A stretch of DNA of 64,000 bases from Octopus vulgaris (taxonomy: Eukaryota): positions 6,138,001-6,202,000 of the forward strand of contig OX597833.1 of assembly GCA_951406725.2 (NCBI GenBank), given 5' to 3'. The position numbers and the translations under genes were made by a program. The notes beneath the pieces are model-generated. The model made no database searches, was not told the origin of the DNA, and saw only the letters and a program-made list of their open reading frames with translations. Positions 1,050 through 64,000 of this stretch are shown one piece after another (position 1 is the first letter of the stretch; each line of letters starts with the position of its first letter).

Positions 1050-1101
<52 letters not shown>

Positions 1102-1411
1102 ATAATAAAATAGGGTAATAATAATAAATTATTATTACCAGTGGCCTAGCACAAAAGACGAATTAGTCATTAGACTATATATTATTCATATAGAAATACA
1201 ATAAGAGGCTTCCAAATAAGGAAGCGTTGTGCTAGAACACAAAAAGGGATAAATTCATGAAAGGAATGAAGATTAAAAACATTTACCATCTCAGCTATAT
1301 CCCAGACCGACGGTTTCTAACTATTTTCAGCAAACAAACAAAATATATTTCATGAATTTATCCTTTTTTGTGTTCTAGCACAACACTTCCTTATTTGGAA
1401 GGCTCTTATTG

Positions 1412-1463
<52 letters not shown>

Positions 1464-2910: not shown

Positions 2911-4563
2911 TTCCTTTATTCTTTTATTTGTTTCGGTCATTTGACTGCGGCCATGCTGGAGCACCGCATTTAGTCGAACAAATCGACCCCAACACTTATT
3001 CTTTGTAAGACTAGTACTTATTCTATCAGTCTCTTGGGCCGAGCCGCTAAGTTACGGGAACATAGACATGCCACCATCTGTTGCCGTCACTACAGAGCCT
3101 GCGTAGACGGAGGAATTGGGAATAGGGGATGGAAAGCTTGGTGTGTTTAGGGTGGGAGGAAGAGAAGCTGAGGTGTGAGTGTGAGTCTGTGTGTTTGTAG
3201 TGGATGGAGGTGGTAAGAGTGGAATGATAAATGCTGACCGAAATGTCAAGATATGAGACAGGAGTGTCAGAGATAGTGCAGGAGAAGTGGAGGGCAAGAT
3301 GGAAAAATTTGACAAAAGAGAGGAAGGAGTCTTGATGTTCGCGGGTGAGGGAGGTTGCACCAATACAGTTGTCAATATATCGTCCATATAGTTCGGTAGT
3401 GAGACCACTGAAACTTGAGAATATTTTAGCCTCAACGTAGCCAACGAGCAGGTTCGCATAGTTGGGGCCCATTCTCCTTCCCATGGCCACTCCCGAGACT
3501 TGCTTGTAGAAATCACCCGCGAACAAGAAGCAGTTGAGTGAGAGGACAAGTTCGGCCAGACGAACGAGTGTGGATGTGTCAGGTTGGGGATTGGGTCGAA
3601 GGTGAAGGAAATGTTGGAGTGCACGCAGCCCCTCATATGTATATATATATATATTATTCATATAAAATACCGTGTACATTAAAATACATTAAAAGGCTTC
3701 CATCATAGGAATGCCTAGCGAAAGAAAGAACAGTTAAAGTTCAAGCCACTAATTAGGGATAAATTCTCGAAGTCAGAAACCATTGTCCGGGAATTGAATT
3801 AGATGGTAAATGTTTTTATTTTTCATTCCCTTCGAGAATTTATCCCTAATTAGTGGCCTGAACTTTAACTGTTCTTTCTAGCGCAAGGCATTCCTATGAT
3901 GGAAGCCTCTTTATGTGTTTTAATGTACACTGTATTTTATATGAATAATATATAGTCTATTGGCTAAATTTCTTTGTGCTAGACCACTGGTAATAAAAAA
4001 ATTTCTATAATTTATTGTCACCCTGATATTATATATATGTAGATATATGTTTCTTCTATTTCAGATACGGTAATAATGATGACTTATATACCCCCGATGT
4101 GTGTTTGGTCGTTTGGAATGAGCCAAAGGAAGTCAGCAATTTTGGTTACGCTTCATGGATTATTCGCAATAGTTGGGGAACTGTCATTCGGTGTTTTCAT
4201 GGATCTGCTTCATTTTACAAGCGCCAAAATTTTCATCTTCGCTCTGTTGTTACTCTCCTCCAGTGCCTTTTTGATGCCGCACTGCGATCAATTTGAATAC
4301 ATCGCTCCTCTGGTTTGCATGGTTGGATTATCAATTGGTAAGTTTTTCTTTTTAAATCTGTTTTCATTATTTGTTCGAGAAGACGCTCCAAAGCTATATC
4401 CCAGTATAACCACAGTCCAATGACTGCAACAAATAAATGATGAAAGGCAAAAGATTATAATGTGATGGTGATGGAAACGGCTGTAGAGAATAACAAATGA
4501 TTAAAAAAATCACAAAGACGCATACATACATATATGCATACATATATACATATACATATATAC

Positions 4564-5198: not shown

Positions 5199-8088
5199 TA
5201 TTACGAGCTTCCTTCAGTTTCCGTCTACCAAATTCACTCGTAAAACTTTGGCCGGCCTGGGGTTATAGTAGAAGACGCTTACTCAATGTACCACGCAGCG
5301 AGACTGAAACCAGAACCATGTGGTTTGGAATGGCAATTTTCTTACCAAAAAGCCACGCCTGAGCCAACGTATTCTGAGAAAAGATGTTAATCTGCCGTAC
5401 ATTATATTGGGTTCGGTTTTCTCAACCAGATAAGTAATTAGGTTCATGAGAGAGGAAAGTATTTTCAGGGGATAAATGTTAATCTGACGTACGTTATGCA
5501 GAGTTCCTTTTAAGGAATAAAATATTGGGTTTTGAATGACATGTTTTTTTTTTACTATTTTATTTTCTCTTCAGGGCTTATCGTATCCCTCCGACTCATC
5601 CTCACCACAGAAATAGCGAGTAAAGAACACGCGACAAAAGCTTACAGCATTCTGAGTTTCATCAGTGGAATTTCATATTTTACTTCTTCTCCTCTCATTG
5701 GTAAGTTTATTGATATTATTGAATTCATTTTGGTAAATTAAGAAGTAATATAACCGAACCGACAAAATATGGGCCTTCAATAACGGTCATGTCTTCTGAT
5801 TCGTGTGAATAAGGAATATTTTCTTCTACACTGAGCACAAGGCCCGGAATTTTTGGAGTGGGGGCAAGTCGATTATCTCGACCCCAGTACGTAACTGGTA
5901 TTTAATTTATCGACCCCGAAAGGAGGAAAGACAAAGTCGACCACGGCGGAATTTGAACTCAGAACATAAAGACAGACGAAATACCTATTTCTTTACTACC
6001 CACAAGGGGGTAAACACAGAGCGGACAAATAAGGACAGACAAAGGGATTAAGTCGATTACATCGACTCCAGTGCGTAACTGGTACTTATTTAATCGACCC
6101 CGAAAGGATGAAAGGCAAAGTCGACCTCGGTGAAATTTGAACTCAGAACATAAAGACAGACGAAATTCTGCTAAGCATTTCGCCCGGCGTGCTAACGGTT
6201 CTGCCAGCTCGCTGCCTTATGAATGAGGGATATTCGTATACGTTAACCCCACGTTTCTCTCTTTCAGAAAAATAATTTATAAATTAAGCCGAAACATCGG
6301 TGTCTAATAATCTCTCAATTTCAATGGAACCTGATATATTTCTACACAAATTCTATAGGGAAATGTTGTTCGAAAAGAACATCCTACAAAGAATGCCTTT
6401 CATGTTAAAAATAAATGTTAAAAATAAATGGGCAACTATTAATAATAAATATGCTTTTCGTCTTGGAACTCATGCTTGTCCAATTCTTAAGACAAAAAAT
6501 ATTTGTCATTTATTGATATTTCTGGAGTGATCAACTTAACCTTTCTTCTCTTCAGATCGATAAAATAAAAACCCAATGGAGCACTGGGACCAATCTAATC
6601 AAACGAAGATGATTGATATAGTAAACCTGCTGTTCAATAGACACTAGAGTCAATAGTATGTGTTAAAAATTCTCGACTAGCAAGCATTATATCAAATAAT
6701 AACAAGGCAGCGAGCTGGCAGAATCGTTAGCACGCCGGGCGAAATGCTTAGCAGTATTTCATCTGCCGCTACGTTCTGAGATCAAATTCTGAGGTCGACT
6801 TTGCCTTTCATCCTTTCGGGGTCGATTAAATAAATACCAGTTACGCACTGGGGTCTATGTAATCGACTTAATCCCTTTGTCTGTCCTTGTTTGTCCCCTC
6901 TGTGTTTAGCCCCTTGTGGGTAGTAAAGAAATAGGTATTTCGTCTGTCTTTACGTTCTGAGTTCAAATTCCGCCGAGGTCGACTTTGCCTTTCATCCTTT
7001 CGGGGTCTATTAAATAAATACCAGTTACGCACTGGGGTCGATCTAATCGACTACCCCCTTCCCCCATATTTCAGGCCTTATGTCTCTAGTAGCAAGCATT
7101 ATATCAAGTAATAACAATATTTGTCTGGAGTTGAAGTCAATTCAAAGAATGGACTGATACATTTTATCTACAGCGCATGACGGCGCATGGCTTAGTGATT
7201 AGGGTAGTCGTGTGTTCGATTCCTGATGGTACGTTGCAAAACACTTTATTACACCTTACTCCAATCCACTCAGCTGGCAAAAATGAGTTGTACCTGGATT
7301 TCAAAGGGACAGCTTTGTCACATTCTGTGTCACACTGAATCTCCCTGAGAACTACGTTAATGGTACATGTGTCTGTGGAGTACTCAGCCACTTGCATGTT
7401 AATTTCACGAGCAGGTTGTTCCGTTGATCGGATCAACTAGAATATCCGTCGTCGAAACCGACGGAATGCTAGTTTAATTTATTTAGGTGAGAAATGTTTT
7501 TTTAATTGAAATAATTAATCATTTACCTGAATCATTTATCAATGTATGGTCTGTAAAATACCAGTTATATACTAAGGTCTGTACCATTGTAATTGACTTT
7601 ATCAAGTTTCCTTTTCATGAAAAGAGCTTTTTTTATAATTAATATTCGAAAGATTTAATAACGTGGAATAAAATCAATTTATGCAAACGAAATATGAAGT
7701 TTGTTACAATTTAATGTTTTAATTAGAATTATATTTCATTGGTTGTAATTAACAAAAAATATATATACATTTTAATTAAAGAATTAATGAGCTTATGATT
7801 AGTATTTGACTGAATATTAACAATCAATTAATATCTGAAAGAACTAATGCGGTTGAGTAGCATCAATTTTTGTAAACGAAGTATTAATTTATTTGCAGTT
7901 TAATAAATGAATTGCTTTTCATTTCAGGATCGATTTTCGATACCACGAAATCGTTTTTGATTGTTTTCTACGGAGGTGGAGTCTGCGCACTGATTGCAAT
8001 AATATTATTTCTGTTCATTACCTACCGTGATAGATGTTGCAAAAAATGTCTACAAAAAAAGTCTACAGGAATAAACTCTAGTCCCTAA
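178..8088 (+). CDS. SLC16/MCT-like MFS transporter paralog A, 3' part (exons 4-8; exons 1-3 upstream of window)
   Basis: Exons 178-266, 2346-2514, 4065-4337, 5575-5700 and 7928-8088 all have canonical AG/GT boundaries and compatible phases. The 273 and 126 bp exons match paralogs B and C. Ends ...[13 protein letters not shown]. Confidence 0.88.
439..812 (-). mobile_element. tRNA-derived SINE family 1 (Deu/Nin-like domain)
   Basis: tRNA-like head GGAGGCGCAATG..GGTTTCGATTCCC, TTAATTTCACGAGCAGGCTG motif and 11-bp TSD ACACGAATAAT. Confidence 0.88.
1105..1422 (-). mobile_element. Non-coding PLE/retrozyme-like 3' end with inverted duplication
   Basis: 75-bp inverted arms at 1188-1262 / 1348-1422. 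The spacer holds a hammerhead 3' half (GAAACCGTCGGTC). The tail is homologous to 3930-4030. Flanked by (TA)n. Confidence 0.65.
1582..2316 (+). mobile_element. SINE family 2, nested/multimeric
   Basis: GGCGAGCTGGCAGAAACGTTAG head and repeated GCCTTTCATCCTTTCGGGGTCGATAAATTAAGTACC core. Confidence 0.85.
2346..2514 (+). CDS. Gene A exon 5
   Basis: ttcag|AAA AGT ... [24 protein letters not shown]|gtgagt. Confidence 0.85.
2520..2663. repeat. (TAC)n microsatellite
   Basis: Starts directly after the gene A exon 5 donor. Confidence 0.97.
3085..3636 (-). mobile_element. Penelope-like element reverse transcriptase fragment
   Basis: [23 protein letters not shown] (decayed YIDD), [34 protein letters not shown] are PLE RT motifs. 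Confidence 0.88.
3648..4030 (+). mobile_element. Non-coding PLE/retrozyme-like 3' end with inverted duplication
   Basis: 125-bp inverted arms at 3648-3772 / 3830-3954. The spacer starts GAAACCATTGTC. Tail ...CTAGACCACTGGT...ACCCTGATATT. Flanked by (TA)n. Confidence 0.65.
4065..4337 (+). CDS. Gene A exon 6 (TM7-TM10)
   Basis: tttcag|AT ... [20 protein letters not shown] ... GLSI G|gtaagt; 273 bp. Confidence 0.9.
5575..5700 (+). CDS. Gene A exon 7
   Basis: ttcag|[26 protein letters not shown] ... SPLI G|gtaagt; 126 bp. Confidence 0.9.
5815..6220 (-). mobile_element. SINE family 2 dimer
   Basis: Same consensus on the reverse strand. Confidence 0.85.
6704..7110 (+). mobile_element. SINE family 2 dimer
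   Basis: Same consensus. Confidence 0.85.
7928..8088 (+). CDS. Gene A exon 8 (last; TM12)
   Basis: tttcag|[19 protein letters not shown] ...; TAA at 8086-8088. Not in the ORF track. Confidence 0.87.
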
Positions 8089-8649
8089 CGTTTTGTTACT
8101 GCTGTGTTAATTCATAACATTCCTGTTACAACTTACGATTTATAAAAGAATGATGGGACGTTTAAAGAATCTCGTTTGGTGTAGCAGAAGGCACCAAACA
8201 CAATTCGATTTATGTTGGTTTCACAACAGAACAATTAAACAAAAGAATCGAACAGAATAACAATGGTTTGACAGAACTTGCCTAACATTTAACATCTAAA
8301 GGCTTTAATTTTGAGGAACACCTGAAAGTCCAGAATCTCAGAAAATATTCTTGCTCTAATACACTTTGTCCCCGAAACACAAGAAGATAAATATACATGT
8401 GAATGTCTAACATTACGCGTTCGAGGAATGAATAAAATGACGGGTAAATTTCATCGCATTTACACAAAACTATTTGATAATATGGTTGTATACTGTCAAT
8501 CTAACACGAACGTGACGGTAGGGGGGTACACCACCGCTGTATAGCCCTAGGAAGCATCGATGCCTCCTGATGGCTTTGACACATTTTTCCCTGTGTCCTT
8601 ATATACATTTACGAAGGGGAGACAAACACCCCCGGCCGCCGAAGCTGCA

Positions 8650-8694
8650 TCTAGGGACACGTGTTTCAGGATCATTGTCCTTCATCGGCCTAGA
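8650..8694 (-). ncRNA. Type I hammerhead ribozyme motif, CCGAUGA core variant
   Basis: TCTAGG-CCGATGA-AGGA caatga TCCT-GAAA-CACGTG-TC-CCTAGA. Confidence 0.75.
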
Positions 8695-9099
8695 GTAGCA
8701 GACACCGGTCGGCTGGCGATATTTGTCTCGACTTCGTATTGTATATATCTATAATTCAGTGAAGTCTATTCACTGAGAAATTTAGTATTTCTTATTTGAT
8801 AATGTGTTCTGTTTTGTTTCCTTTTTTTTCTTTCTTTTTCTTTTGTTATCAGTTATGAAAAAGTGAAAAATGATGACGACATTTTGTCTGAAAAAAAAAA
8901 TAATATAAACATAATATTCCTGTTCGTATTTTGAATTTTTGTATTCCTACGTTCTTTTCATTTTACATTTTGAACCCGAGGAAGACAGATACTTTGTCGA
9001 AGCAAAGCTCACTTCGTTTCATTCAATAAACAGAGTCAATCTCAATTCATTACAAATCGCATCGCGATCGTCTTATTATTATTATTATTATTCAGTAGT

Positions 9100-9372
9100 T
9101 TTATTTTTTATAGCGTGCTTTCACTTCACTACCGAGCGCAGCTCTGTGTGCCTTGGGTATGTGCTGTGATTTGTTGTGATGCTCTGATGGTTACTGTATG
9201 GAAAGTGTTCTGCGTAGGATTGTGTGCAGTGCCTAGTAGTGCAATTTTCTGTATGTTATATGTGTTTGTAAGTCCTGGTGTTTTTGTTATGTATTTGTCT
9301 GAATATTTTTTTATTATGCCTAATGCACCTACTATGATAGGAATTGTTTCTGTTTTTAGATTCCACATTCTG
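9100..9372 (-). mobile_element. R4/Dong-like non-LTR retrotransposon 3' end
   Basis: MWNLKTETIPIIVGALG...IQKIALLGTAH is typical of the RLE C-terminus. Embedded in (ATT)n arrays. Confidence 0.75.
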
Positions 9373-9431
<59 letters not shown>

Positions 9432-9960
9432 GGTAGCGAGATGGAAGAATCATTAGCGCGCTGAACGAAATACTTAGCGGTATTTCGACCGTCGCTACTT
9501 TCTGAGTTCAAATTCAGCCGAGGACCACTTTACTTTTCATCTTCTCGGGGTCGATAAATGAAGTACCAGTGAAACACTGGGGTCGATGTATCTCTCCCCT
9601 CAAATTCCAGGCTTTGTGCTTTTAGTAGAAAGGATTATTTGCCGCCGGGCACTGGAGCAGCATCAAATGAAAGTGCTTTGCTCGAGCACAATGCAATGCA
9701 CCGTCCTGGAATCGAAACCACGATCGAGCGGTCGTCAGTGCCTCTTTACCTCCCCCTCCTTCTCAAACTTTTTCTTCTTTCTTCTCCCTTGCTTGGAAAA
9801 CCCCACAATATTTTTTCTATATATAAAAAAGCCAAGAAATCTCACTTTAAACCACTTTTTGATAAATTCGATAACGGAAGAAAGCGCTAAAAGTGTAACT
9901 AAAATGTAAATAAAAATATATATAATCATCCAACATTCTGACTACTTTATAATTCTAAAT

Positions 9961-10021
<61 letters not shown>

Positions 10022-10181
10022 AAACTATGTATGTACTTTATATACCATGGAGAATTTCGTTAATATGGATTGAATGAATGAATATATACATCGGCCTTTG
10101 AATTTGGGTTCTCCTCTCCTTAATGTTATATATATATACACACACATATAGCCTATTGTGTGTGTATATATATAGACACAA

Positions 10182-10212
<31 letters not shown>

Positions 10213-10655
10213 GATAGATAGATATTATTATTTGATAACGAAAGTTAAATAAGGAAAACAAAAAAATTTTTATGCAATGTACTTTTTCGGGAATTCAATA
10301 AAGTCGGCGGATCGAATGAAGTGAGGCCGATGGCCGTAGTTTGCCAAATTCTGTTCTAAATTGTTCGAAATTGCTGATTGCGGAGGTACCCACATTTAAG
10401 GATACAACCCTTGATTCTTTAGTGGTATATTGGTGGTTTTACAAGTTAGTTTGTATAACTATGTTAAAGGTTAATATTGATAAGTAATATTCGTCGCCAC
10501 TTCAACATGGCTGTCCGTTCGAACGGACTCTGCTGCGATATTTTAACCCTAAGAGGACATCTCCTCTAGCTGGTTATTGAAACACTGCTGCATTCGATAA
10601 ATTTGCAAGCAGGGGAGCTAACTCCTACCTCTTTCTAGCGACGGGATAAACTTAC

Positions 10656-10781
10656 CCAAAAGTGGAGGGGAAGTAAGACCGGAAATTCCAGTACCGACAG
10701 ATGAGATGCAGTAAGCCTTAGGGGTTTGTTCTCGACCAACTATTTCAGAAGGGAGCACTGACCTGAGGGACACAACAAAGC
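10656..10781 (-). pseudogene. Orphan copy of SLC16 exon 7 (pseudo-exon)
   Basis: 126 bp open frame GFVVSLRSVLPSEIVGREQTPKAYCISSVGTGISGLTSPPLLG with an intact G|gtaagt donor, but the acceptor reads tttcgg instead of tttcag. No sister exons found nearby. Confidence 0.8.
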
Positions 10782-10816
10782 CCGAAATTAACGAATAATA
10801 GAAACACAAAGCATAC

Positions 10817-10822
10817 GTGTGT

Positions 10823-10889
<67 letters not shown>

Positions 10890-10892
10890 TGT

Positions 10893-10935
<43 letters not shown>

Positions 10936-10960
10936 TGTGTGTGAGTGTGTGTGTATGTCT

Positions 10961-11005
<45 letters not shown>

Positions 11006-11013
11006 TGTGTGTG

Positions 11014-11080
<67 letters not shown>

Positions 11081-11195
11081 TGTGTGTGTGTGTGTGAGTG
11101 TGTGTGTGAGTGAGTGTGTTTGTAAGTGTGTTTGTGTGTGTATGTGTGAGTGTGCGTGTGTGAGTGTGTGTGTGTGTGAGTGCGTGTGTGAGTGT

Positions 11196-11234
<39 letters not shown>

Positions 11235-11420
11235 TGAGTGTGTTTGTGTGAGTGTGTGTGTGAGTGTGTGTGTGTGTGAGTGCGTGTGTGAGTGTGTGTG
11301 AGTGTGTGTGTGAGTGTGTGTGTGTGTGTGTTTGTGAGTGTATTTGTGTGTGTGTTTGTGTGTGTGTGAGTGCGTGTGTGTGAGTGTGTGTGTGAGTGTG
11401 TGTGTGCGTGTGTGTGTATG
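10817..11420. repeat. Compound (GT)n/(GTGA) microsatellite
   Basis: Direct inspection. Confidence 0.97.
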
Positions 11421-11960
11421 CGGGTGTTGTAACTACACAAATAACACGAGTAAAATTTGAGACAAAGAAGAAAGAAACGAAAATGAAGAAGAAAAGGTAT
11501 CGGGTGGGGGGTGATGCATGCCTTGTGCACACACAAGAATAAAATATAATTTAATTTAATAAATGAATTCTCAGATGAATTCGTATTTCAACAAAATAAC
11601 ATCAGGAATTATTTCCCCTGCTTATCGTTTGTAAACAAAGACAAAAAATTCATTTTGGTTCACCCGTCTTCTAGTTTTGAAGCTAAACAAATCAAACTTT
11701 AATGAGTTCGAGCCACTCACCCAATGAGTATTTCCACTCACTTTACAAACACACAGAGAAAGACGAGCGACTACAACAACCTGCGTTCACTTAGGCGCGC
11801 AAAGGGGGAAAAAACGAAGCGCTGTCAGAAAAGTGAAAGCACGTGCCTGAAAAGCGTGGAAAACATAAAGCGGGAAAGCAAAAAACGAATAAGCGTACAA
11901 CAAAAGCATATAGAGACGTGTTTACAGAGGTATACGTATCTATCTCTATATAGATAGAGA

Positions 11961-12373
11961 TAGGCGCAGGAGTGGCTGTGTGGTAAGTAGCTGGCTAACC
12001 AACCACATGGTTCCGGGTTCAGTCCCACTGCGTGGCATCTTGGGCAAGTGTCTTCTGCTATAGCCCCGGGCCGACCAATGCCTTGTGAGTGGATTTGGTA
12101 GACGGAAACTGAAAGAAGCCTGTCGTATATGTGTATATATATATATATATATGTGCGTGTGTGTGTTTGTGTGTCTGTGTTTGTCCCCCTAGCATTGCTT
12201 GACAACCGATGCTGGTGTGTTTACTACGTCCCCGGCAAAAGAGACCGATAGAATAAGTACTGGGCTTACAAAAGAATAAGTCCCGGGGTCGATTTGCTCG
12301 ACTAAAGGCGGTGCTCCAGCATGGCCGCAGTCAAATGACTGAAGCAAGTAAAAGAGTAAAAGAGAGTAAAGAG
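11961..12373 (+). mobile_element. tRNA-derived SINE family 3 (CORE-like, internal microsatellite)
   Basis: AGGCGCAGGAGTGGCTGTGTGGTAAG head, CTTGGGCAAGTGTCTT, and tail CAGCATGGCCGCAGTCAAATGACTGAA..(GTAAAAGA)n. Confidence 0.88.
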
Positions 12374-12754
12374 AGAATATGCATATATTTCATCCGCCGT
12401 TTAAACACTGATGCTTTCTGCCTTCCCACCATTATCTTTTCTTTTATATCATTATACCTCATTGCTTTTCTCACAGTTTACTTTTCAATTATTTCATTTC
12501 ATTTTTTTAAAATTTATTTATTTATTATTTATTTATTTTTATTTTATTTTTATTTTTTATAATGTGTCTATTTCCCTGATATATGTTTGTGAAAACGTTC
12601 TTCACTTTTCCTAGAATAAATATTTCAAGAAATAGCTTCTGGTGTTGTACCGTAGGCATCTCGGAAAGGGCTTCTCCCACCCGAAACAAAAAGGACAGGC
12701 GTGACTCTGTTGTAAAACGTTTGCATCCTTTCCAACCACATTGTTTCGAGAATG

Positions 12755-12854
<100 letters not shown>

Positions 12855-12900
12855 TGTATGTGTGTGTGTGTTTTTTTTTTTTTTTTTTTTTTAATATATA

Positions 12901-12931
<31 letters not shown>

Positions 12932-13257
12932 GTATATATATATATAGTTGGAATATAGCAGAAAACACTTTCCAAAGGTGCCACACAGTGGAACTGAACC
13001 CGTAACCATGTGCTTGGGGATCGAACTATTTACCACAATATCACGTCATACTTTAGCGATGGAGTTAATAATAAATGGATAATATGGATAATTTTTTTTT
13101 AGTCTACTTATCATATTTACAACTCACTTTATGTGTGTATCCATGTGTATACACGCATGTGACGCAAAGTATATTTATGGGACAAATCCTCTAAAAAAGA
13201 CAGTTTATAAAGAAATATATATTTGGAACGAAACAGAAGCATTTTATGAAATATAAT

Positions 13258-13379
13258 TTATTTTATACAAAATTTATTACGTAAAGTTATTAACGAAATA
13301 AACACTAGTGCAAGAACGGCACAGGCTCCAGCTCCGTAGAACACAACCAGGAACGATCCGGTGATGTCATAAAACAGAC
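13258..13379 (-). CDS. Gene B exon 8 (last)
   Basis: ttttag|GT LFYDITGSFLVVFYGAGAC ... FCIK-TAA. Confidence 0.88.
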
Positions 13380-16300
13380 CTAAAATGACAAATTAGATTG
13401 TTTAAAGAATCACAGTTCCTGAAGACATTGTATCGATTTAATCAATACACGCATGGGGTATTATTTGAAGGACAATATTGTACTTTTTCATCATTAAACT
13501 TGTAAATATTAAAGTCAATTGTTTCTAACGGGGAACTTGAAGTATATAAGGCTATATATAATGGCGTGTAGAATATTGGGTTTAAGAACCCTTTGGATGG
13601 AAAAGAATGTCGAAGGCTGCCCTTCGGACACGAACCCACACCTTCTGTAAGCATGATTGATGTTCTAACCATCATATCAAAGCAACCCTTCGAATATTCC
13701 ATTCATTTTAGAATCTATGTTCTCGTGAGAATTGTAAAATGTTTACATTATAGGTATTTAGAGACTTCAAGAGATCGTAGCAGCAGGCAGAATATTTGGC
13801 TGGAAAATCTCTTGGGTAGAAGAAAGTAGAAAACTGCCTGTGTGACTCGAAACCGTATTTTTTCGATGAAATAACAGAAGTGAAACTAGAATTCTATGGG
13901 AATAAAATTTTGTTGTTTAGCTGCCTACGAGAATTTCTGTACTACATTGCATCACATGTTCCTGTCTTTGATGCGTTGCAGCTAATGACAGTAGCAGTTG
14001 TCTTTTCCAATATTGTGTTATTAAATATTTTTTAAACTGCTTACATTTGCTTTAATATTCAGATATTTTATTAAGTATATTTAGGAAGTGTATGTATTCC
14101 AGTAGTTGAAGCTCTTCTTAGCTGTAGAAGTCGCATTGTTTTGTCCCATTTTTAAAAGATCCGAATTCTCTCCACATTATATCGAATTCTTTGCCTCTGA
14201 TTTCTTTAATTTCCAGATGTGTCTTGATAGTTTCTTGACGTTCTTCCTTCTTTTCCATATTTTCTGAGCGTAGCAGTGTGGTTATATTGTATCTTGAACT
14301 TGCCTTTTGTCTTGCCTATATACAGCTTTAGTTACTGTTAGATGTACGTCTATTGAAGCTAACCTCATCTTGGTACACAACCGCTTGTGTATCGCGGGAC
14401 ATACTTAAGAGGAGCCTGGTTTGTGCAGCTGCGTGGGGATTCGATATTGTTCGTCTAACTCTTGTTATGATGTTCTTTTCATATTCCTGGTTGATCTGTA
14501 AACGCTACGTCGCTTGAATAGTTTTCAGTATCTGTGGTTTGTAGGGAAGTGTTTATCTATTGATGCTAGAAAGTTTTTTCCTAAGCTAGACTTGACGTTA
14601 AGTGACAATGGAACTATAAACTATATAAGTGTACGTTTTCTCTTTGGGGAAAGGGTTTTCAATACTAACAGACACAAACAACATAGAGAAGTACATTGCA
14701 TCGGTTATTTTCAATATTACATTACATAAACATATTGAAGAATAACTTTGACGAGCTTACCAAAAAGAGGAGAGGAAACTAATCCTGCGATTCCACTCGT
14801 GACACATAGAACACTGTATGCCTTTGTAGAATGTTCTAGACCAACGACTTCAGTGGTTAGCACCAGTCTTAGTGATACGGTAAACCCTGGAGTAAATGAA
14901 GAACGGTACAGATTCAGAATGCTATACACAAACACACACATATATAGACAAATACACAAATATATTTGTGTGATTTTTGATAATAACTGAAAGGAACTTC
15001 TTCCCTCCAAACCTGTGTATATAATTCAAGAACGCATTTGTGTAAAATTGTGTTCTATTTGAAATGCTTGGTGATGGACTAACTTGTTAAGACAAAGATA
15101 AAATATTGTAAAATAGCAGAATACTAAAATACATCTGACTTCAGACCAATATTTGATGGAGCTTTACATCCGCACATGTCGAGGGGTTTTAGTCAACTGT
15201 TATCAAAATTATTCCTCTTTTTTTTTTTGCTTTCTTTTTGTATATTGTATAATTTTTTACTTTTTTTTTTGTCCTGCAAAATATCGAAACCCATTTTTAT
15301 GACAAATTTATATTTACGAAGCATTCTGCTCCAGTGTTTTACTTTTCTCAACATTAATATGGAGAATTTCACGGCCGAGGTTGACTTTACATTTTATCCT
15401 TTCGGAGTCGATAAATTAAGTACCAGTTGAATACTGGGGTTGATCTAATCGACTGGCCCTAGTATCAACGATTTAACAAGTCCCAAAACTGCGGCCCTTC
15501 TGCGTGTGTTGGAGTACAGAGAATCAGTGATGAGTGCTAACTGCTGGATCGTTCAGAGTAGCACAACAGAGACGGGTTGCGCAAGTCAGGAGATGATGGC
15601 GATGGTGAATATACGAACATTACAATAAAATTCTAAAATAAATTGTGTTGAAAATGTTATAAACTTACCGAGAGCAATACTGTAGATACAGACTACAGGA
15701 GCGATGTATTGGAAGGTATAGCAGTATGGCATCAATATGGTAGAAACTGAGAATACTAGCAGAGAAAAGATGTACATGTTCTTGCTACGAAAGTGAAGCA
15801 GATCAACAAACACACCAAGGAAGAGTTCCCCGATTGTTGTGAATAATCCGAGAAGCGACATCAAAATGGCGGACTTCTTCTGAGTCATGCCAAACGACCA
15901 GACACAGAGAGGTGGCAAATACATTATCAAAGTTAGATTAACTGTAATAAAAATGAAAGGGATTGAGAAAAATGGTGAGAAAAAACGAGATGATACAAAG
16001 TTAAAGGGACAAAAAGGATGTCGGGAAGGAGATGAGTGAGAATAGAAACGGGCGGAACAAAATTTGATGAAGCTAAACGTCTATGGTCGATGTATTAGTT
16101 GTTATTATTTTTGTTAGTAATGTCATTTAGTAATTTCATTTGGTTGATGTGAGACGTGTGTGAACAGAGATACACAAAACAATTCAGACATTCTTTTCTA
16201 CTCTCGGCACAAGAGCAGAAATTTTGAGGGGAGAGGGCCAGTTGATTAGATCGACCCCCAGTACGCAACTGGTACTAAATTTACCGCCCCCGAAAGGATG

Positions 16301-17070
16301 AAAGGCAAAGTCGACCTCGGTGGAGTTTGAACTCAGAACGCAGACTGACGAAATACCTATTTCTTTACTACCCTCAAGGGGCTAAACACAGAGAGGACAA
16401 ACAAGGACAGACAAACGGATTAAGTCGATTATATCGACCCCAGTGCGTAACTGGTACTTATGTAATCGACCCCAAAACGATGAAAGGCAAAGTCGACCTC
16501 GGAAGAATTTGAACTCAGAACGTAACAGCAAACTACATACCGCTAAGCATTTCGTCCGGCGTGCGAACGTTTCTGCCAGCTCGCCGCCAAGAACCTATTC
16601 TAGCTGTCCCAAATGATAGCATTTTGGAGCTGCTTTAATCTAGGGTTTATGCCTATTTCCTCTATCCATCCGAAATGCTTAGCAGTATTTCGTCTGCCGT
16701 TACGTTCTGAGTTCAAATTCCGCCGAGGTCGACTTTGCCTTTCATCTTTTCGGGGTCGATTAAATAAGTACCAGTTACGCACTGGGGTCGATATAATCGA
16801 CTTAATCCGTTTGTCTGTCCTTGTTTGTCCCCTCTATGTTTAGCCCCCTGGTGAGCAATAAAGAAATAAGGATAGGTTCTTGGCATCAAATTTACTTGTT
16901 GCAGCCTGATGATAGGAATTTTTTTCAACTGTTTAGTCTGTTGTGCATAAATGCAATAATAATCATTATAACAATAATTATATTCCTTTCTCATATAGTA
17001 TAAGGCCTGAAATGTTCGTGGGGGGATTAATTCGGTTACATAAATCCCAGTACTTCACTGATCGACCCCA

Positions 17071-17120
<50 letters not shown>

Positions 17121-17182
17121 GTACATGATAACACTTCCAATCAGTTAAGATCAGAAGCCATGAGAGCCACTGCCTGGTATTG

Positions 17183-17237
<55 letters not shown>

Positions 17238-17776
17238 GCTACTTACACACCCAAAAGACATAGGACAACATCAGTAACAGAAAGTTAACATTCTTAAAAA
17301 GTTCAACGCCAATTATATTTGTGCAGCGTTTCGCCAGTGAATTCTCATCTTTCCGGTTCCTGACAACGTATTCGCCCTTGACGCCATTTTTATCTGCTGT
17401 TGAAGGACTGTCCTAAAACAAAAAATAAAAGAATTTAGATTAATATTCAAAGAATTTTTATAAGCATTCTTTTAAGCGTTGTGATTCCTTTTTGAAAGGC
17501 AATCGACCTCGGCGGAATTTGAACTCAGAACGCAAAGACAGACGAAATAACGCTAAGCATTTCGGCCGGAGTGCTAACGTTTCTGCCAGTAATTACTCTT
17601 CTGTAACTAAAATAGGCAACGGATAAACTGCTATGTGTAATAGATGTTTCGACTTTCTGCGACTCGGGTTCGAATCACACCGGGATTAAACTTTGTCCAT
17701 AAGAAGAAAACGGGCAAATCTCTGGGCGATGGATTACGAAACAGAAACGATCTTGGCTAGGATGCTTTGGATGTGT

Positions 17777-17841
<65 letters not shown>

Positions 17842-19141
17842 TTTGTATCTGTCTTTGTCTCCCCACCACCGCTGTACAACAGCTGCTGGTGTGTTTACGT
17901 CCCAGTAACTTAACAGTTTGGTAAAGGAGATTGCAAGAATAAGTACCAGGCTTTACAAAGTACTAGGGTCGATTCATTCAACTAAAAATTGTTCAAGGCA
18001 ATGCCCCAGCATGGCCGCAGTCTAATGACTTTTGTAAGTAGAAGATGAAAGGTTCGGTTATAGCAACGGAACACTGTTGAAGAACTCTTACATATTTCGA
18101 TATACTCAGAGAAAAAAAACACATCGTTAATAATTATAAGTATTAATCAATTATCAGAATTAATTAACAAACAATAAAACAATTACTCTCTCACCACGTT
18201 CTGTGTCTCTTTTAACGTTATGAATCTCTCGTTTCGGATCCTTCTCTCTCTGGTGCTTCCTGTGTTGTGGGATTCTTCATCTTCCATCACAGAAGTTTGG
18301 TTGGTTCCGTCTGGTGAGGCAGAAATTAGATTTCTACAAAACAGTAAGCATTGCGTTCTTTTTGTGTCTACCATTGTTTCATTTTTTCTCACAAGACTAT
18401 ATACATACATACATAAATAATCAAATAGAATTAAACAACATATCTTAAAGTACATTTATTTAATTTTATTATTTCATTATTTTATAATTATTATATGTGA
18501 ACTAAAATCTAAAAGTATTAAGTGTGATTGATTTGTAAAATAGTTGTAACGTAAAATATTATAGTATAGGTAGTGAAAAGATATACTATAGTTTATTAAT
18601 GTTATTATCAAAGCTAAAATACATCTTCACAGATAAGATACGTTTTTCTATATATTTACTCTATTTTTTACCTTAGGTTTTTAACATCAAATTTAGTTAA
18701 CGGAGTTTCTTCTATAAGAAGAACCATGATTTTATATCTTTAGGAAATATTGTTTAATTCTATTTGATTATTTATTTAACTATTATTGTTACTATTGTTG
18801 ACCTGAGGAGTGACTATACTTTTAAATTGAATTGTTTTTCGATTAAATTTAAATTTAATTGTAATTCGAATTGAAGTTATAGCTATGAAACGTACGTAGT
18901 CTTTTTACTTATCATATATTGTTCATTCATTTTTTTGTACTTTTTGTGGTCTAGTTATATGTTTTATAATATATTTTATTTTTCTTTATCATTTGGTTTA
19001 TGTCTATCATTGTTTGAATTACATAATAGTGTATTTTCTCTAATTTATATATATTATATATTTATATTGTGAAATTTGATTTAATACTAAATTGAATTTT
19101 TCCCTGTAAGTTTGGAGTTATACTCCTTATAATTATTATAA

Positions 19142-19178
<37 letters not shown>

Positions 19179-19758
19179 GAGTGAGAGAGCAGTTCATGCC
19201 ATCAAAGTGACACTGGGGTAAAATATACGAAGCCCAATATACCCATCATGACTACCCGTCTGATAAAGGTACACCAGGCACATGCATCACAACCATATGT
19301 GCGCGACATGGTGATCTCATATCAAGATAAACAGCACATGACCTTGCAGGTGGGGCCCAGTTAGAATTTTCTTCAGGTTGAGTAGCCCATCCTGCTCAAA
19401 CGGTCCCTGAATAAGGGTTGTTTAAGGATGTTGAAAGAACCACCCATGTTTCCAGAGGTGAACTATTCAAACCCCAAAGAATCCCTCTCAACACATGGCT
19501 ATGATGCTCCCCCACTACTTCTGCTCGTGATCAGAGATGCACATATCGTCAGCCACTAAGGGACATGCTCAACTGGTTAAGGTCAAACAACTGACAAGTA
19601 AATCTATGGTATTGAGCAGAATATTTGCTGTAGCCCATCTTTTATACCAAGACAAAACAATGTACATGATAACACTTCCAATCATTTAAGATCAGAATCC
19701 ATGAGAGCCACTGCCTGGTACTGCATCAGGGCATTTATTATTATTATTATTATTATTA

Positions 19759-19798
<40 letters not shown>

Positions 19799-20687
19799 CA
19801 TATTTATATATATTCGCCTATGTATTTGCACATGTGTATATATTCTGTGTATTATATACATACGTAATAATATTTCAAATTGTAACGATCTTACCTTTAG
19901 ATTCTTTCTGCTCAACATTTTTGTAGGCATATTGCAGGGGTCGGCAAAGCGATCCAAAAACAACAATATTCAAAAGTGCCCCTGAAATAAGAAGCAAGGT
20001 CCCTCTCAGTCCGTAAAAGTCTATGAGGTACTCAAGTAACATGTTGGCCACTAATGTCCCCATTCCACCACCACAGTTCGATATTCCTATTGCCAGTGCA
20101 CGCTTTTTTTCAAAATAGAATCCTGCAATGATTTGCCCAGTGAAAAATGACATTCCAAGTGACACACCTGAAAAAAAAAGGTAAAATAATTCACAAAAAT
20201 TATTTTGGAAATACACAGCAATATATTACAGAGATATGAAATCGGTGGAGCTGTTTTGTGATTGACTGGTGATTTTTGAATTGTGCTTCTAAATGCCGTG
20301 TGTTTGTCCATTTAGAAGTTTCTAAAGTACTTTTACCATTTCCATAATTACTTCCATTGTTTAACTGGAAGTTAGAAACTGATTATTTAAAAGTTAGATT
20401 TGTGATGACTGGTGTTAGAATTTCTCTGTTTATATCGTGATTATGGACTGGAAAGCTTATTCGACATTAGATATTGGTGATAAAACGAGTCGTTAAGTTT
20501 CGTTGGTTGGTTGGGTTGGTCAGAAGGAGTGTTTTTCAACATGTCTGTAGGAATTCTTAGAACAACACATGCATAACGGCTGCGAAATTCTTGGGTCTCC
20601 AAAGATACGATTTATGTAAGCACTAGCAGCGCATTCACCACTTCAAAAGGGAATGTTTTGGCTATTCCTTCTCTCTCTCAACAAATA

Positions 20688-20737
<50 letters not shown>

Positions 20738-22255
20738 TGAACAGAACTTTCCGTCAGTATTCTGTTATTTATTTTTTTCTGCTCATTCATCCATTGTTCC
20801 GTCCCTCCCGTTGTTAATGAGGTAACTCATTTATTTCTTATTGTTATTTTGGCGGTCATTAATTATTATTCGTAAAGCTGTATCAAGCTAAGTAATTAGT
20901 CAAGCCATGAGAAGTACAAATAATGTCAGTCGCTCACACATTATGTAAAAGGTGAACGTATTATCTCGCCAGACGTGACAACAAACAGTCGAAATGTGTG
21001 TCATTTTGATGACATCGCAACATTATCTATTCTCCCCGCCACACACCACACACCACACACACACCACACACATACGCATACACACACAAACACATACACG
21101 CTCAAACATTGCTTCAAGTCGACTCAGTAATAAGTGAGCCCTTTGTTAACGAGCTTCAAAGCTAAGAGGATATTTTAGCCCAGCCGATGATTAGCCCAGC
21201 TTTAACCAAATTTATCTCGTAAATATTTCCGTTAAACAGAACATAGCACCGTGTCAGTTGGCGTTGTGTCTTTTTTACACTCCCGAAAGAAAGATAACAT
21301 TTTTATTACAGGGTAGCTAGACATATGTTCTTTCCGATGGTGACATTTTCTTATCAGCTTCTACCTTTCGGAAGTTAACGAAACCAGCAAAAGATAAACA
21401 TTTTCAATCATAATTTGAATATTTCGAGAAAATATTCTTATCTATGCGGTTTATTTTTCTTTGCACCTCGTTACACTTTCGCGTCTTGGGTGCAATTATT
21501 CTCAAAATCTATGGACGCATTCAGTATTTTTTTATTACATTATTGTCCGAGCTTTTAAATTACGCGTGTTCGATGCAATTCTTTCCAAAATCCACGGACA
21601 GGTTTCATATATTTTAAATCCGTATTTGTCCTCGCTCGCTTAAATTCTACATGTTTAAAATCCACGAACACATTTAATAGATATTTTCACCCCATGATGG
21701 TCCGATCCATTTCAGTTATTTCCCAACTTTCTACAATGACATTACGTTTTCTTTTTTATTTCTTTTTTTCAGACCAGACTAAAGACAGTCTTATCACTTC
21801 AACTTCGGTTTGGACAGCAGTGTTTTAGAAGAACATTGTTCTCCGTCAAACGGTTGCTCTGGAGTCCTTCAATATTCCATCATCTATACGACCCACATGA
21901 CCTGCCCAATGCGGTCTGTTTCGCTGTAAAAGATCTTTTATCTCTACAGCGTACGCTAACCTTCAAACCGCAGCATCGCTCACATAATCTCACCAAGATA
22001 TATGCAAAATTTGAAGAGAGCATTCTCGTTGGAATTATTTATATATTTAGAATACAATGTCTAAGTTCTACAAACATTTGAGAAAACAGACAAAATGCAT
22101 GTCTGGGAGTAAATATTTGGCAGTCATTCCTGCATATCTTGGAGAGCACAGGGAAGAGGTTATAACTTCCTAAATGATAGCCACGGCTCTATTTGCCATT
22201 TTGCTCGTCATGACTATCATTTGGAAAATTGCAATCTTCACTATCGTCTCAAATC

Positions 22256-35199: not shown

Positions 35200-37037
35200 A
35201 AGGCGGCGAGCTGGCAGAATCGTTAGCACGCCGGGTGAAAATGCTTAGCAGTATTTTGTCTGTCTTCATCTTCTGAGTTCAAATTCCACCGAGGTCGGAT
35301 TTTCTTTTCATCGTTTGGGGATCGATGAATTGACTACCGGTGAAACACTGTGGTCGATGTAATCGATTAGTCCCCTCTCTCAAATTTTCAGGCCTAGTGC
35401 CTTTAATAGGAAGGATTATTGTTATCATAAGTTAATGTGGGGTGGGCTGGCAGAAGCGTTAACATGTTGAACAAAATACTTAGCGGTATTTCGTTGGCTG
35501 CTACGTTCTGAGTTCAAATTCCGCCGAGGTCGACTTTGCCTTTCATCCTTTCGAAGTCGATAAATTAAGGACCAGTTACGCACTGGGGTCGATGTAATCG
35601 ACTTAATCCGTTTGTATGTCCTTGTTTGTCTCCTCTGTGTTTAGCCCCTTGTGGGTAGTAAAGAAATAGGTATTTCGTCTGCTGCTACGTTCTGAGTTCA
35701 AATTCCGCCGAGGTCGACTTTGCCTTTCATCCTTTCGGGGTCGATAAATTAAGGACCAGTTACGCACTGGGGTCGATGTAATCGACTTAATCCGTTTGTC
35801 TGTCCTTGTTTGTCTCCTCTGTGTTTAGCCCCTTGTGGGTAGTAAAGAAATAGGTATTTCGTCTGCTGCTACGTTCTGAATTCAAATTCCGCCGAGGTCG
35901 ACTTTGTCTTTCATCCTTTCGGCGTTGATGAAATAAGCACCAGTTGAACATTGAGGTCGATGCAATAAAATACCCCACCACCACCACCATCAAAATTTTA
36001 GGCCTTGTTCCTATAGTCACATAATTAACCAATAACTCATCGATTGGTTGATTAATCGTTGATTCCATCAATTAATTGACCAAACAATTACTCAAACAGT
36101 CGATTAATTAATCAATGAACTAATAAAAATAAAGGAAATGCAACCAGAGCATGTGTTTTTCGTTGCCCTAATTACCCTCCCAAGATACAATATACGAATT
36201 TACATAAGAATCTTGTAAACCAATTGCAAAAACCAAAAACAAATAATAATCTTCATTTCATCAAAAAGAAAAATACCATCGAAGAAATCGATTTTACTTT
36301 TAGCTACCATTTTATTTACTCGAATATTTTACATAATATTTTAATCTATTAATACCCGATTTCAGTATTTCTTTAGAATGTGTCATAATTATTAAATGAC
36401 AATAAAGACCAGCTTTACTTGAGAAAAGGACCGAATCGTTAGAACGTGATGACAAGTAAAATGATTAGCGGCATTTCGCCAGCCATCAGGTTCTGAGTTC
36501 AAATTCCACCGAGGTTGACTTTGCCTTTCATCCTTTCGGGGTCGATAAATTAAGTACTAGTTACGCACTGGGGTCGATATAATCGACTTAAACCGTTTGT
36601 CTGTCCTCGTTTGTCCTCTCTGTGTTTAGCCCCTTGTAGGTAGTAAATAAATAGGCATTTCGACAGCCATCAGGTTCTGAGTTCAAATTCCACCGAGGTT
36701 GACTTTGCCTTGCATCCTTTCGGGGGTCGATAAAAAAAGTACCAGTCGAGGACTGGATTCGATGTAATCAACTTACCCACCGCCGCAGAAATTGCTGGCC
36801 TTGTACCAAAATCTGAAATTAATATTTCTTTAGTCTCTTAGGTAGTGTGCGTTCGTCCATAAATGGACCATTTAATTTTTTTCCTGTGTTTTTCCTTTGT
36901 TTTCTGAGTAATGTCAAACTGTAAATTTGACATGTTTACTTGACGGATTATAATTCCCCATATTCAGGTCAATGCTCTATTTTGAATAATAACTGTTTCG
37001 GCATGAGTGAATTCGTATGTGTTCGTGTGCATATATA

Positions 37038-37070
<33 letters not shown>

Positions 37071-38210
37071 TATATATATCTTTTCTTTTCTTTTTTCTTT
37101 TTACTTGTTTCAGTCATTTGACTGCGGCCATGCTGGAACACCACCTTTTAATCGAGCAACTCGACCCCGGGACTTATTCTTTTGTAAGCCCAGTACTTAT
37201 TCTATCGGTCTCTTTTGCCGAACCGCTAAGTAACGCGGACATAAACACACCAGCATCGGTTGTCAAGCAATGCTAGGGGGACAGACACAGACACACAAAC
37301 ATACACACACACACATATATATATATATACATATATACGACGGGCTTCTTTCAGTTTCCGTCTACGAAATCCACTCACAAGGCTTTGGTCGGCCCGAGGC
37401 TATAGCAGAAGACACTTGCCCAAGGTTCCACGCAGTGGGACCGAACCCGGAGCCATGTTGTTGGTAAACAAGCTACTTACCACACAGCCACTCCTGCGCC
37501 TATTAGGTTGGCTAATTAATATTTAAACAACTTTTTGTTGGAATAATAATGATTAGGCATAAACATCTGATTACCATCTATTTTAAGATGTATTAATAAG
37601 TGGCATTAATTACATGGAATAAGGTGGCGAGCTGGCAGAACCGTGAGCACGCCGGGTGAAATGCTTAGCAGTATTTCGTCTGCTGCTAAGTTCTGAGTTC
37701 AAGTTCCGCCGATGTCGACTTTGCCTTTCATCCTTTCGGGGTCGATTAAATAAGTACCAGTTCTGCACTAGGGTCGATGTAATCGACTTAATACCTTTGT
37801 CTGTCCTTGTTTGTTCCCTCTCTGTTTAGCCCCCCGTGGGCAGCAAAGAAATAGGTATTTCGTCTGCTGTTACGTTCTGAATTCAAATTCCGCCGAGGTC
37901 GACTTTGCCTTTCATCCTTTCGGGGTCGATTAAATAAGTACCAGTTCCGCACTGGGGTCGATATAGTCGACTTAATCCGTTTGTCTGTCCTTGTTTGTCC
38001 TCTCTATGTTTAGCCTTTTGTTGGTAGTAAAGAAATAGGTATTTCGTCTTTCTTTACGTTCTGAGTTCAAATGCCACCAAGGATGACTTTGCCTTCTGTC
38101 ACCCTTTCGGGGTCGACTGAATTAACTACCAGTGAAATACTAGGGTCAATATGATTGACTTACCCCTCCCCACAAATTTCAAACCTCATACCTATAGAAG
38201 AAGGGATTAA
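35200..38210 (+). mobile_element. Cluster of SINE family 2 multimers
   Basis: 35200-36015, 36435-36825 and 37621-38210, with an internal period of ~184 bp. Confidence 0.82.
37095..37502 (-). mobile_element. SINE family 3
   Basis: Full-length reverse copy. Confidence 0.88.
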
Positions 38211-39112: not shown

Positions 39113-39158
<46 letters not shown>

Positions 39159-39164
<6 letters not shown>

Positions 39165-39896
39165 CAATAATTTTAAGGAATGGCCTTAATAGGCCATTCA
39201 ACTCACTAAAACGAGCAGCTAAACTCAAACCGGTTTGAGTTTAGCTGCCCGTTTTAGTGAGTTGAATGGCCTATTAAGGCCATTCCTTAATATTATTGTT
39301 GAATGTACATTATATAGTCTCTTGACTATTTTTTCTTTCTCACTAGACCGCTGGTGGCGAAAAAAATTTCTATTGAATTTTTTGCTACCCTGATATTGAT
39401 TAATTAATGATTTTTTGGCTAATTCTGAAATTAAATCAGCAGTTTATATTTGCTGCTGATAAGTTGGCGCGATGACGGTAGATTTTGAAAATTTAGAGAA
39501 TATATCCCCAAGGCATCGATGCTGTTGTTACCTCGTGGAATATATATTCCCCCTGGCTTCTTTGCCGATGAGACGGGCCAGTGGTAAATTGACTTGATTA
39601 AATTTAATTTAATTAAGCTGGTTTGCCAAAAAGTACGTCGAAACTATGCATAGTCCAAAGATGATAAGGGGAAATGTTTTTAATTTTCCTTTGATTTCTG
39701 AATTACTACTATTTAACGGTTTGAGTTTGGCTGCTCGTTTTAGTGAGTTGAATGGCCTATTAAGGCCATTCCTTAATATTATTGTTGAATGTATATTATG
39801 TAGTCTGTTGACTATTTTTTCTTTCTCACTAGACCGCTGGTGGCGAAAAAATTTCTATTGAATTTTTTGCTACCCTGATATTGATTAATTAATGAT
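39159..39896 (+). mobile_element. Hammerhead-containing ~486-bp-unit retrozyme / mini-PLE with pseudo-LTR structure
   Basis: Direct repeats at 39231-39411 and 39717-39896, a 73-bp inverted stub at 39159-39231, an internal hammerhead and (TA)n flanks. Confidence 0.72.
39559..39661 (+). ncRNA. Type I hammerhead, CCGAUGA core, extended stem II
   Basis: TCTTTG-CCGATGA-GACG..TGGTAAATT..CTTGATTAAAT/ATTTAATTAAG..GGTTTGCCA..CGTC-GAAA-CTATGCATAG-TC-CAAAGA. Confidence 0.82.
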
Positions 39897-40909
39897 ATAT
39901 ATATAAAACTGAGAATGTGTGTCTGTCTGTGTGTTTCCCTAAAACTTGAGAACTACACAACCAATTTCATTCAAATTTTGCACATGCCTTACTTAGGGTC
40001 CATGTAGGTTCATGGGCAAAAACAAATGTTCAACTTCTTGCCTAGAGCGAGCCCATAGCAATATCATATCTTCTCCACTATTTCAGTATTACGTGTTAAA
40101 AGTGAAACAAAAATATTTCTCTATTTTATGTCAGATGCTTTCACTTTAACAATAAAAATAATAATAACAATTGAATTATATGTAGTAAGTAATAATTAAA
40201 ATCAAACTAAAGTATAATATAAGTAAAAATAGCAATTGGTATAAAATTGCATCAATGATTTGAACTTGAATAAGTGGTTTCAAATGAATGGGAATTAAAT
40301 TAAAAATAAAATTAGCGTGCAGAAATGGAATAGTCCAGATGGATAATAAAAAATTAAATTAAAGAAAAGACTATTGTCTATAAAGTATACAATGTAGAGA
40401 AAAAAGATTTGAACACATGGAGGAAAGCACCTCCGAAAAGTGTCTTGGTGCGACTATAAAAGGTATCTAATCAGAGGCAGTAAATTCCCCACAATAGAAG
40501 CAAGGTTCGAGTCAACGGAGCGTGCAAGGGAGTACTCGACTCGAACTTGCAAAGTGGAAATATTTTATTTTTACCTTTATATCTGGGACGTAGGACGTCC
40601 CGGAAAATATTTTAAATGCTTCCCCCACCCCCCAGAAGTAGAGGTAGGCTGGATTGTAGCCACACTTCTATACAAGAGGGAGGACAAGATACAATTGATC
40701 GAAATTACAAGAGACGGGCTAACAATTCCAGTCTGTTATATATTTTGAGTATTGTTATCACTAGCGATATCAAGATATACCTTTGTATTTTGTATTTTAT
40801 GTGTAGATGTATATATATATATAGATGTACATGTAATATGTACACATATATACACACATATATACATGCATAGCAATATGACCCGGCAACGACGGGTCTT
40901 TAATGCTAG
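39897..40909 (+). mobile_element. Non-autonomous Helitron
   Basis: 5' TATATATAAAA..TGTGTGTCTGTCTG, 3' hairpin GACCCG-gcaacga-CGGGTC followed by CTAG|T. Confidence 0.62.
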
Positions 40910-42689: not shown

Positions 42690-60128
<17,439 letters not shown>

Positions 60129-63630: not shown

Positions 63631-63654
63631 TACGCGCGCAGGGTAATAACCCCT

Positions 63655-64000
63655 ACCTATTTCTTTACTACCCACAAGGGGCTAAACACAGAGGGGACAA
63701 ACAAGGACAGACATAGGTATTAAGTCGATTACATCGACCCCAGTGCGTAACTGCTACTTAATTAATCGACCCCGAAAGGATGAAAGGCAAAGTTGACCTC
63801 GGCGGAATTTGAACTCAGAACGTAGCGGCAGACGAAATACCTATTTCTTTACTACCCACAAGGGGCTAAACACAGAGAGGACAAACAAGGACGGACAAAC
63901 GGATTAAGTCGATTATATCGATCCAGTGCGTAACTGGTACTTATTTAATCGATCCCGAAAGGATGAAAGGCAAAGTCGACCTCGGCGGAATTTGAACTCA
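63655..64000 (-). mobile_element. SINE family 2 multimer, runs off window
   Basis: Two tandem body units. Confidence 0.85.

Follow-up and report, generated by a model that had tools for sequence, protein, structure and literature searches.

Non-LTR retrozymes are described as tandem repeats without ORFs that carry type I hammerheads, with circles in coral, mussel and axolotl (PMC7229834), and a preprint derives them from the pseudo-LTRs (pLTRs) of Penelope-like elements (PLEs), treats monomers as likely dead offspring and reserves the term "active" for copies with two hammerhead units (bioRxiv 10.64898/2026.07.22.740005). PLEs insert as a partial tandem accompanied by an inverted 5′ stub, Chlamydomonas has non-autonomous PLEs that form pLTRs, and pLTR introns are known for Penelope and Chlamys-3 (PMC8557442). 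Ribozyme-bearing non-autonomous repeats tied to PLEs are already published from corals, mussels, insects and vertebrates.

In the window, by which we mean the whole 64,000-nucleotide stretch of Octopus vulgaris DNA that was analyzed, positions 39159 to 39896 are probably a 5′-truncated insertion of a non-autonomous PLE, whose ~490-nt ORF-less unit derives from a PLE pLTR; units of this class are termed non-LTR retrozymes when in tandem. The features of the element and of its two relatives in the window are as follows.

39119..39160, no strand: (TA)n target run on the 5′ side (TRF: (AT)21, 21 copies, 100% matches)
39159..39231, minus strand: inverted 5′ stub, 73 bp (71/73 identical to 39232–39304)
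39231..39411, plus strand: 5′-truncated upstream unit (pseudo-LTR), 181 bp, without hammerhead (175/181 identical to 39717–39896)
39412..39896, plus strand: one full ORF-less unit, 485 bp (from repeat comparison, contig joints and ORF list)
39559..39661, plus strand: predicted type I hammerhead with U4C core and palindromic stem III, predicted cleavage after C39655
39670..39832, plus strand: candidate retained spliceosomal intron, 163 nt (from motifs; donor GG here, GT in the family)
39839..39874, plus strand: subterminal hairpin (same place in E1 and E2, sequence changed)
39897..39904, no strand: short TA run at the 3′ junction, within the first letters of an unrelated repeat of very high copy number
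3648..4030, plus strand: relative E2, an inverted stub and a copy truncated inside the hammerhead, in (TA)n (73% identical to the element over aligned bases)
1099..1430, minus strand: relative E1, an inverted stub and a copy truncated inside the hammerhead, in (TA)n (65% identical over aligned bases)

An earlier note on this DNA had claimed a spacerless 73 + 73 bp palindrome, a repeated segment of about 180 bp, TA flanks and the lack of an ORF, and each of these was borne out on recomputation. The palindrome is centered at 39231/39232 with no spacer, has two mismatches per 73-bp arm (arm positions 18 and 60) and breaks at position 74, and every one of 14 neighboring centers tested fails at the first base. 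The direct repeat (39231–39411 vs. 39717–39896) is identical at 175 of 181 positions with one gap and an offset of 486 bp, forming the partial tandem of a pseudo-LTR. The longest ATG ORF in the element encodes 71 aa and overlaps both the hammerhead and the candidate intron. TA runs flank the element, E1 and E2, consistent with a microsatellite target (no target-site duplication is discernible), and in all three an inverted 5′-truncated copy lies beside the 5′ end. The note's reading of the partial tandem and inverted stub as PLE pseudo-LTR anatomy is therefore supported and fits the published insertion pattern (PMC8557442).

Over 73 sites, each of the three sequences (stub, copy 1, copy 2) has a single site at which it departs from the others, and the divergence of the direct repeat (6/181) does not differ from that of the stub (2/73); this equal divergence fits identity of all three at the time of insertion. 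It is feasible to propose a local duplication or an assembly artefact at a microsatellite, as the region is AT-rich and repeat-dense and none of the listed contigs spans the whole locus, but we consider this very improbable: the repeats are mutually diverged at those 6 and 2 sites, the same anatomy recurs in two diverged relatives and the unit junction recurs in other copies.

Compared with non-LTR retrozymes (PMC7229834; bioRxiv 10.64898/2026.07.22.740005), the locus shares an ORF-less low-GC unit, a type I hammerhead, a head-to-tail junction, a highly self-paired monomer and coexistence with PLEs. It differs in comprising 1.37 units with one hammerhead, in its U4C core and very long stem II, in its inverted 5′ stub and candidate retained intron, and in the circle, which is hypothetical here; its unit is longer than the 170–400 nt circles of PMC7229834 and lies inside the 51–972 bp consensus range of the preprint. 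The pseudo-LTRs of EN+ Neptune/Nematis elements (PMC4209133; PMC8557442) resemble it in their partial tandem, inverted 5′-truncated copy, microsatellite target, hammerhead with palindromic stem III and pLTR intron (a candidate in the present element), whereas the unit here is without an RT-EN ORF and we identified no 30–40-bp tail extension. Non-autonomous Chlamys PLEs such as MRC1 are likewise ORF-less, with pLTRs and head-to-tail insertions; however, they are from green algae, most are without canonical hammerheads, and they insert at (CA)n and (C)n (PMC8557442).

E1 and E2 are 82% identical to each other, and both have the 3′ ~240 nt of the element in common with it, starting inside the 3′ half of the hammerhead with the GUC included. 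A profile built from the three copies found no further copy in the 64-kb window, and a fourth match to the donor motif (55662–55678) proved not to be a relative. The subterminal hairpin is present in all three copies (weak in E2), all three end in TA, and the spacers of their inverted stubs measure about 85, 57, and 0 nt. The outer end of the element's stub falls at a TA-rich patch near 39304/39790, shortly before the acceptor in the unit, and the stubs of E1 and E2 stop at the homologous patch. This common end point, resting on three copies, is a testable mechanistic lead.

All three copies also have a donor-like motif ~15 nt after the GUC, followed 141–177 nt after that motif by a branch-point, a pyrimidine tract and a TAG acceptor. 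At 39671 the family has T (9093 of 9104 depth in run X4), giving a GT donor, whereas the present copy has GG. From these motifs we infer that 39670–39832 would be a retained pLTR intron.

To place the locus within its family we drew on a search of sequencing runs, in which 24 runs were listed under four organism labels and 20 contained part of the stretch, none of the latter on record as RNA. Contigs were placed on the element from four of the 24, their numbers for single runs being 1889, 2941, 1306, and 405 with 29–30 of 30 bins covered; X2, X4, and X7 are DNA runs and X10 is RNA by our guess, and the tallies below rest on the 32 of 6569 pieces, 40 of 115 variant sites and 24 of 456 loose ends that were listed. 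Three of these 32 pieces span the tail-to-head junction at 39411/39412 (two from X2, one from X4), four bridge the ORF-less middle at 39530 (one each from X10 and X2, two from X7) and two bridge the join of hammerhead and repeat at 39716/39717 (one each from X2 and X7). Each bridging piece has at least 31 letters on either side and differs from the locus at 7–20 letters, so these pieces come from other copies. A joint returning from 39897 to 39409, with four letters between, was found in all three DNA runs, and some family copies have eight more letters at the unit junction, between two GAT.

Together, the bridged junction and middle indicate that in the family the unit closes on itself with no ORF needed. 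The ~486-nt unit proposed in the earlier note accordingly has its counterpart in other copies as a closed, ORF-less unit of ~490 nt (the joint in all three DNA runs). That note had also named a case against itself, that copies might always be contiguous with a PLE ORF, and this is contradicted by the four diverged contigs, from three of the four runs, that cross the ORF-less middle. Judged from these contigs, a multicopy ~490-nt non-autonomous unit exists and is not only a 3′ UTR. Short contigs cannot separate a partial tandem from a long array, and none of the listed pieces (at most 215 nt) has two hammerheads.

Summed depth drops ~20-fold in mid-unit (in X4, 516 at 39512–39538 vs. 8,000–22,000 on both sides), with a trough at 39485–39565 in all four runs, which indicates that the middle is different in most of the family; in some members an ORF may follow, so as to constitute an ORF-bearing branch. 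The trough is what would be expected if the family were mostly the pseudo-LTR of an autonomous Neptune-type PLE, with 39412–39480 the leader before the ORF, 39550–39896 the 3′ end and our locus part of a small internally deleted side branch. E1 and E2, as plain 5′-truncated ends, agree with such a family, and an intron and a hammerhead are normal in a pLTR (PMC4209133; PMC8557442). We nevertheless regard this explanation as unlikely. The trough is crossed by the same four contigs, none of which has an ORF there; in X10, loose ends at 39463 look like the unit's own middle in diverged form; and the fraction of placed records that run on unlike the stretch is only 0.01. Moreover, if a deletion branch had been amplified, that branch would count as a non-autonomous element in its own right.

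No joint skipping the candidate intron (39670–39832) was among those listed for X10, the run guessed to be RNA. Its depth profile correlates with that of DNA run X4 (r 0.89), and the ratio for the unit is 0.052, vs. 0.076 for the downstream repeat, these depths being no measure of expression. Depth ratios give a rough copy range of 37–875, where summed contig depth is not copy number. A 22-nt pattern had no matches in viral contigs; its single match in metagenome contigs was rejected as chance, the contig being GC-rich and coding and showing no similarity beyond the match.

The hammerhead, which the earlier note had called well formed, has three stems around a conserved core and an NUH site: a 6-bp stem I, a long stem II (39572–39639), GAAA at 39640–43, a 12-nt palindrome at 39643–54 and the GUC at 39653–55. 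The stems, palindrome and cleavage triplet were confirmed, but the core is a weakened variant, reading CCGAUGA (U4C) rather than CUGAUGA; the published metazoan consensus is CUGANGA (PMC4209133; PMC8557442). U4C is a described natural variant with lowered activity in vitro that still allows viroid infectivity (PMC3088659). Our hammerhead descriptor had two matches in the window, and at least one match in 1 of 100 first-order Markov resamples. An Rfam search did not detect the hammerhead at the gathering score or among 23 matches at E ≤ 10. A second type I hammerhead, unrelated to this one, lies at 8694–8650 on the minus strand; as it too has CCGAUGA and a stem III that is palindromic, U4C would seem characteristic of these elements and not a sign of decay. 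The flank of this second hammerhead has a 13-nt near-palindromic word in common with 39511–39523 (E 0.019), which may be chance.

Variation in the family bears on the same structure. The stem III pair 39645/39652 is T-A in this copy and A-T in a subfamily present in all four runs, with equal depth at the two positions in X4 (3049/3049) and X10 (115/115) and depths of 7389/6816 in X2 and 677/619 in X7, and a loose end in X4 (two contigs) has C-G at this pair with a GUA triplet and an unchanged 3′ strand of stem I. The variant sites listed, 40 of 115, include none at C4 (39566). On this pattern of substitutions, the hammerhead is under constraint and stem III covaries.

Forcing the fold to hammerhead geometry costs 0.6 kcal/mol (−26.1 vs. 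a minimum of −26.7). The probability of stem I is 0.65 in a 126-nt context and 0.0–0.01 in all five longer contexts tested, and the hammerhead fold is thus predicted to be blocked in the monomer. We considered whether removal of the candidate intron would free the hammerhead and ruled this out in silico (stem I still 0.0). The letters at 39506, 39551, and 39671 are nearly private to this copy; they strengthen the predicted pairing around the hammerhead and at the same time abolish the GT donor, which reflects either chance or a small subfamily.

Because the repeated part does not include the hammerhead, this copy has a single one, and excision of a circle from it is impossible. The claim of more than one monomer thus stands as to length (1.37 units) and falls short as to ribozymes, since the locus lacks the two or more consecutive units with complete hammerheads of an active non-LTR retrozyme. 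A true circRNA retrozyme, a sub-case of the non-autonomous PLE that we favor, would have self-cleaving masters of at least two units, perhaps cleaving as dimers via the palindromic stem III, and an abundant ~490-nt circle as insertion template. Such a cycle would agree with family sequence that is scarless across the 3′ end of the insertion, with the three window copies that cross the GUC, with a monomer that is stable when folded as a circle (z −5.8 vs. 40 shuffles) and with the precedents in coral, mussel and axolotl (PMC7229834). The stem III palindrome is also predicted to pair with itself (12 bp, −15.9 kcal/mol), which agrees with the dimer model of PMC4209133. However, the single hammerhead at the locus, its U4C core, a size of 490 nt where 170–400 nt is reported (PMC7229834), the cleavage in vitro of only 1 of 9 Xenopus dimers (bioRxiv 10.64898/2026.07.22.740005) and the fact that the DNA pattern would be no different after linear read-through of a partial tandem leave us doubtful of this sub-case.

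For the insertion of the non-autonomous PLE itself we envisage the following course. The element would be moved in trans by an autonomous Neptune/Nematis-type PLE with an RT and a GIY-YIG endonuclease, the endonuclease nicking the (TA)n run and the nick priming at the AT-rich patch behind the subterminal hairpin, within an RNA that continues past that point. That RNA would be a hammerhead-to-hammerhead circle or an uncleaved multimer: family sequence continues past the 3′ end and three copies cross the cleavage site, which argues against an RNA ending at the hammerhead, and the circle is one of two templates that fit. The RT would copy 1.37 units, through the intact GUC site and the unspliced intron, after which the cDNA end would fold back, copy 73 nt of itself and join the second target end at the internal TA-rich patch by TA microhomology. 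At 39729, the diverged family members among the listed loose ends read G, like copy 2, and this one site suggests copy 1 as the template of the stub. Having a single hammerhead and a donor that is mutated, the present copy is probably a dead end.

Enzymes of the type that such a cycle calls for are represented in the window by an open 183-codon PLE RT fragment of Neptune/Nematis type at 3086–3634 on the minus strand, which adjoins E2 across a TA run. The fragment has 57% identity to a protein that combines RT, a CX4CxxC linker and GIY-YIG; its match P0065 carries this linker, a Neptune/Nematis trait (PMC8557442). No relatives of the fragment were found in viral contigs. By its similarity, the fragment shows that such enzymes were in the genome, which falls short of linking them to the element family.

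The element is ~2.8 kb upstream of an exon (42693–42944) on the same strand that is 95% identical to a monocarboxylate transporter of Octopus sinensis and 90% to that of O. bimaculoides; 14 of 15 matches of the exon are from Octopus. Several monocarboxylate-transporter (MFS) genes are clustered on both strands at 4043–55138, and a tRNA-like gene is at 47054–47135 (plus strand, 60.5 bits). The right flank (39897–40150, also 55501–55531) is a very high-copy repeat with summed depth of 0.4–1.4 million in X4/X2, the start of which is reminiscent of non-autonomous Helitron-type repeats. A 184-bp unit in 1.9–2.7 tandem copies occurs at 1748–2111, 35485–35966, 37671–38162, and 63654–64000, and resembles a common octopus SINE-like repeat, itself in partial tandems.

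Our literature searches on hammerhead ribozymes with octopus and on retrozymes with cephalopods returned none described in a cephalopod, although supplements may list some, and the word "ribozyme" has no occurrences in a 2026 O. vulgaris repeat paper; a further search, on the mechanism, gave no papers from 2021 onward. The locus adds a new host group for this kind of element, which is of modest value, and its small size suits it to tests of the model in which PLEs transpose through a circular intermediate (PMC4209133). A bolder scheme would place a family of such circles in octopus genomes: ~490-nt ribozyme circles that keep the intron, with a U4C hammerhead gated by dimerization, would be copied by a PLE RT from a fixed internal priming site, the TA patch being the fixed point at which the second target end is captured. 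We consider this scheme, taken as a whole, improbable; if true, it would make the family a compact model of the PLE cycle, covering the role of the hammerhead, the retention of the intron and the formation of inverted ends.
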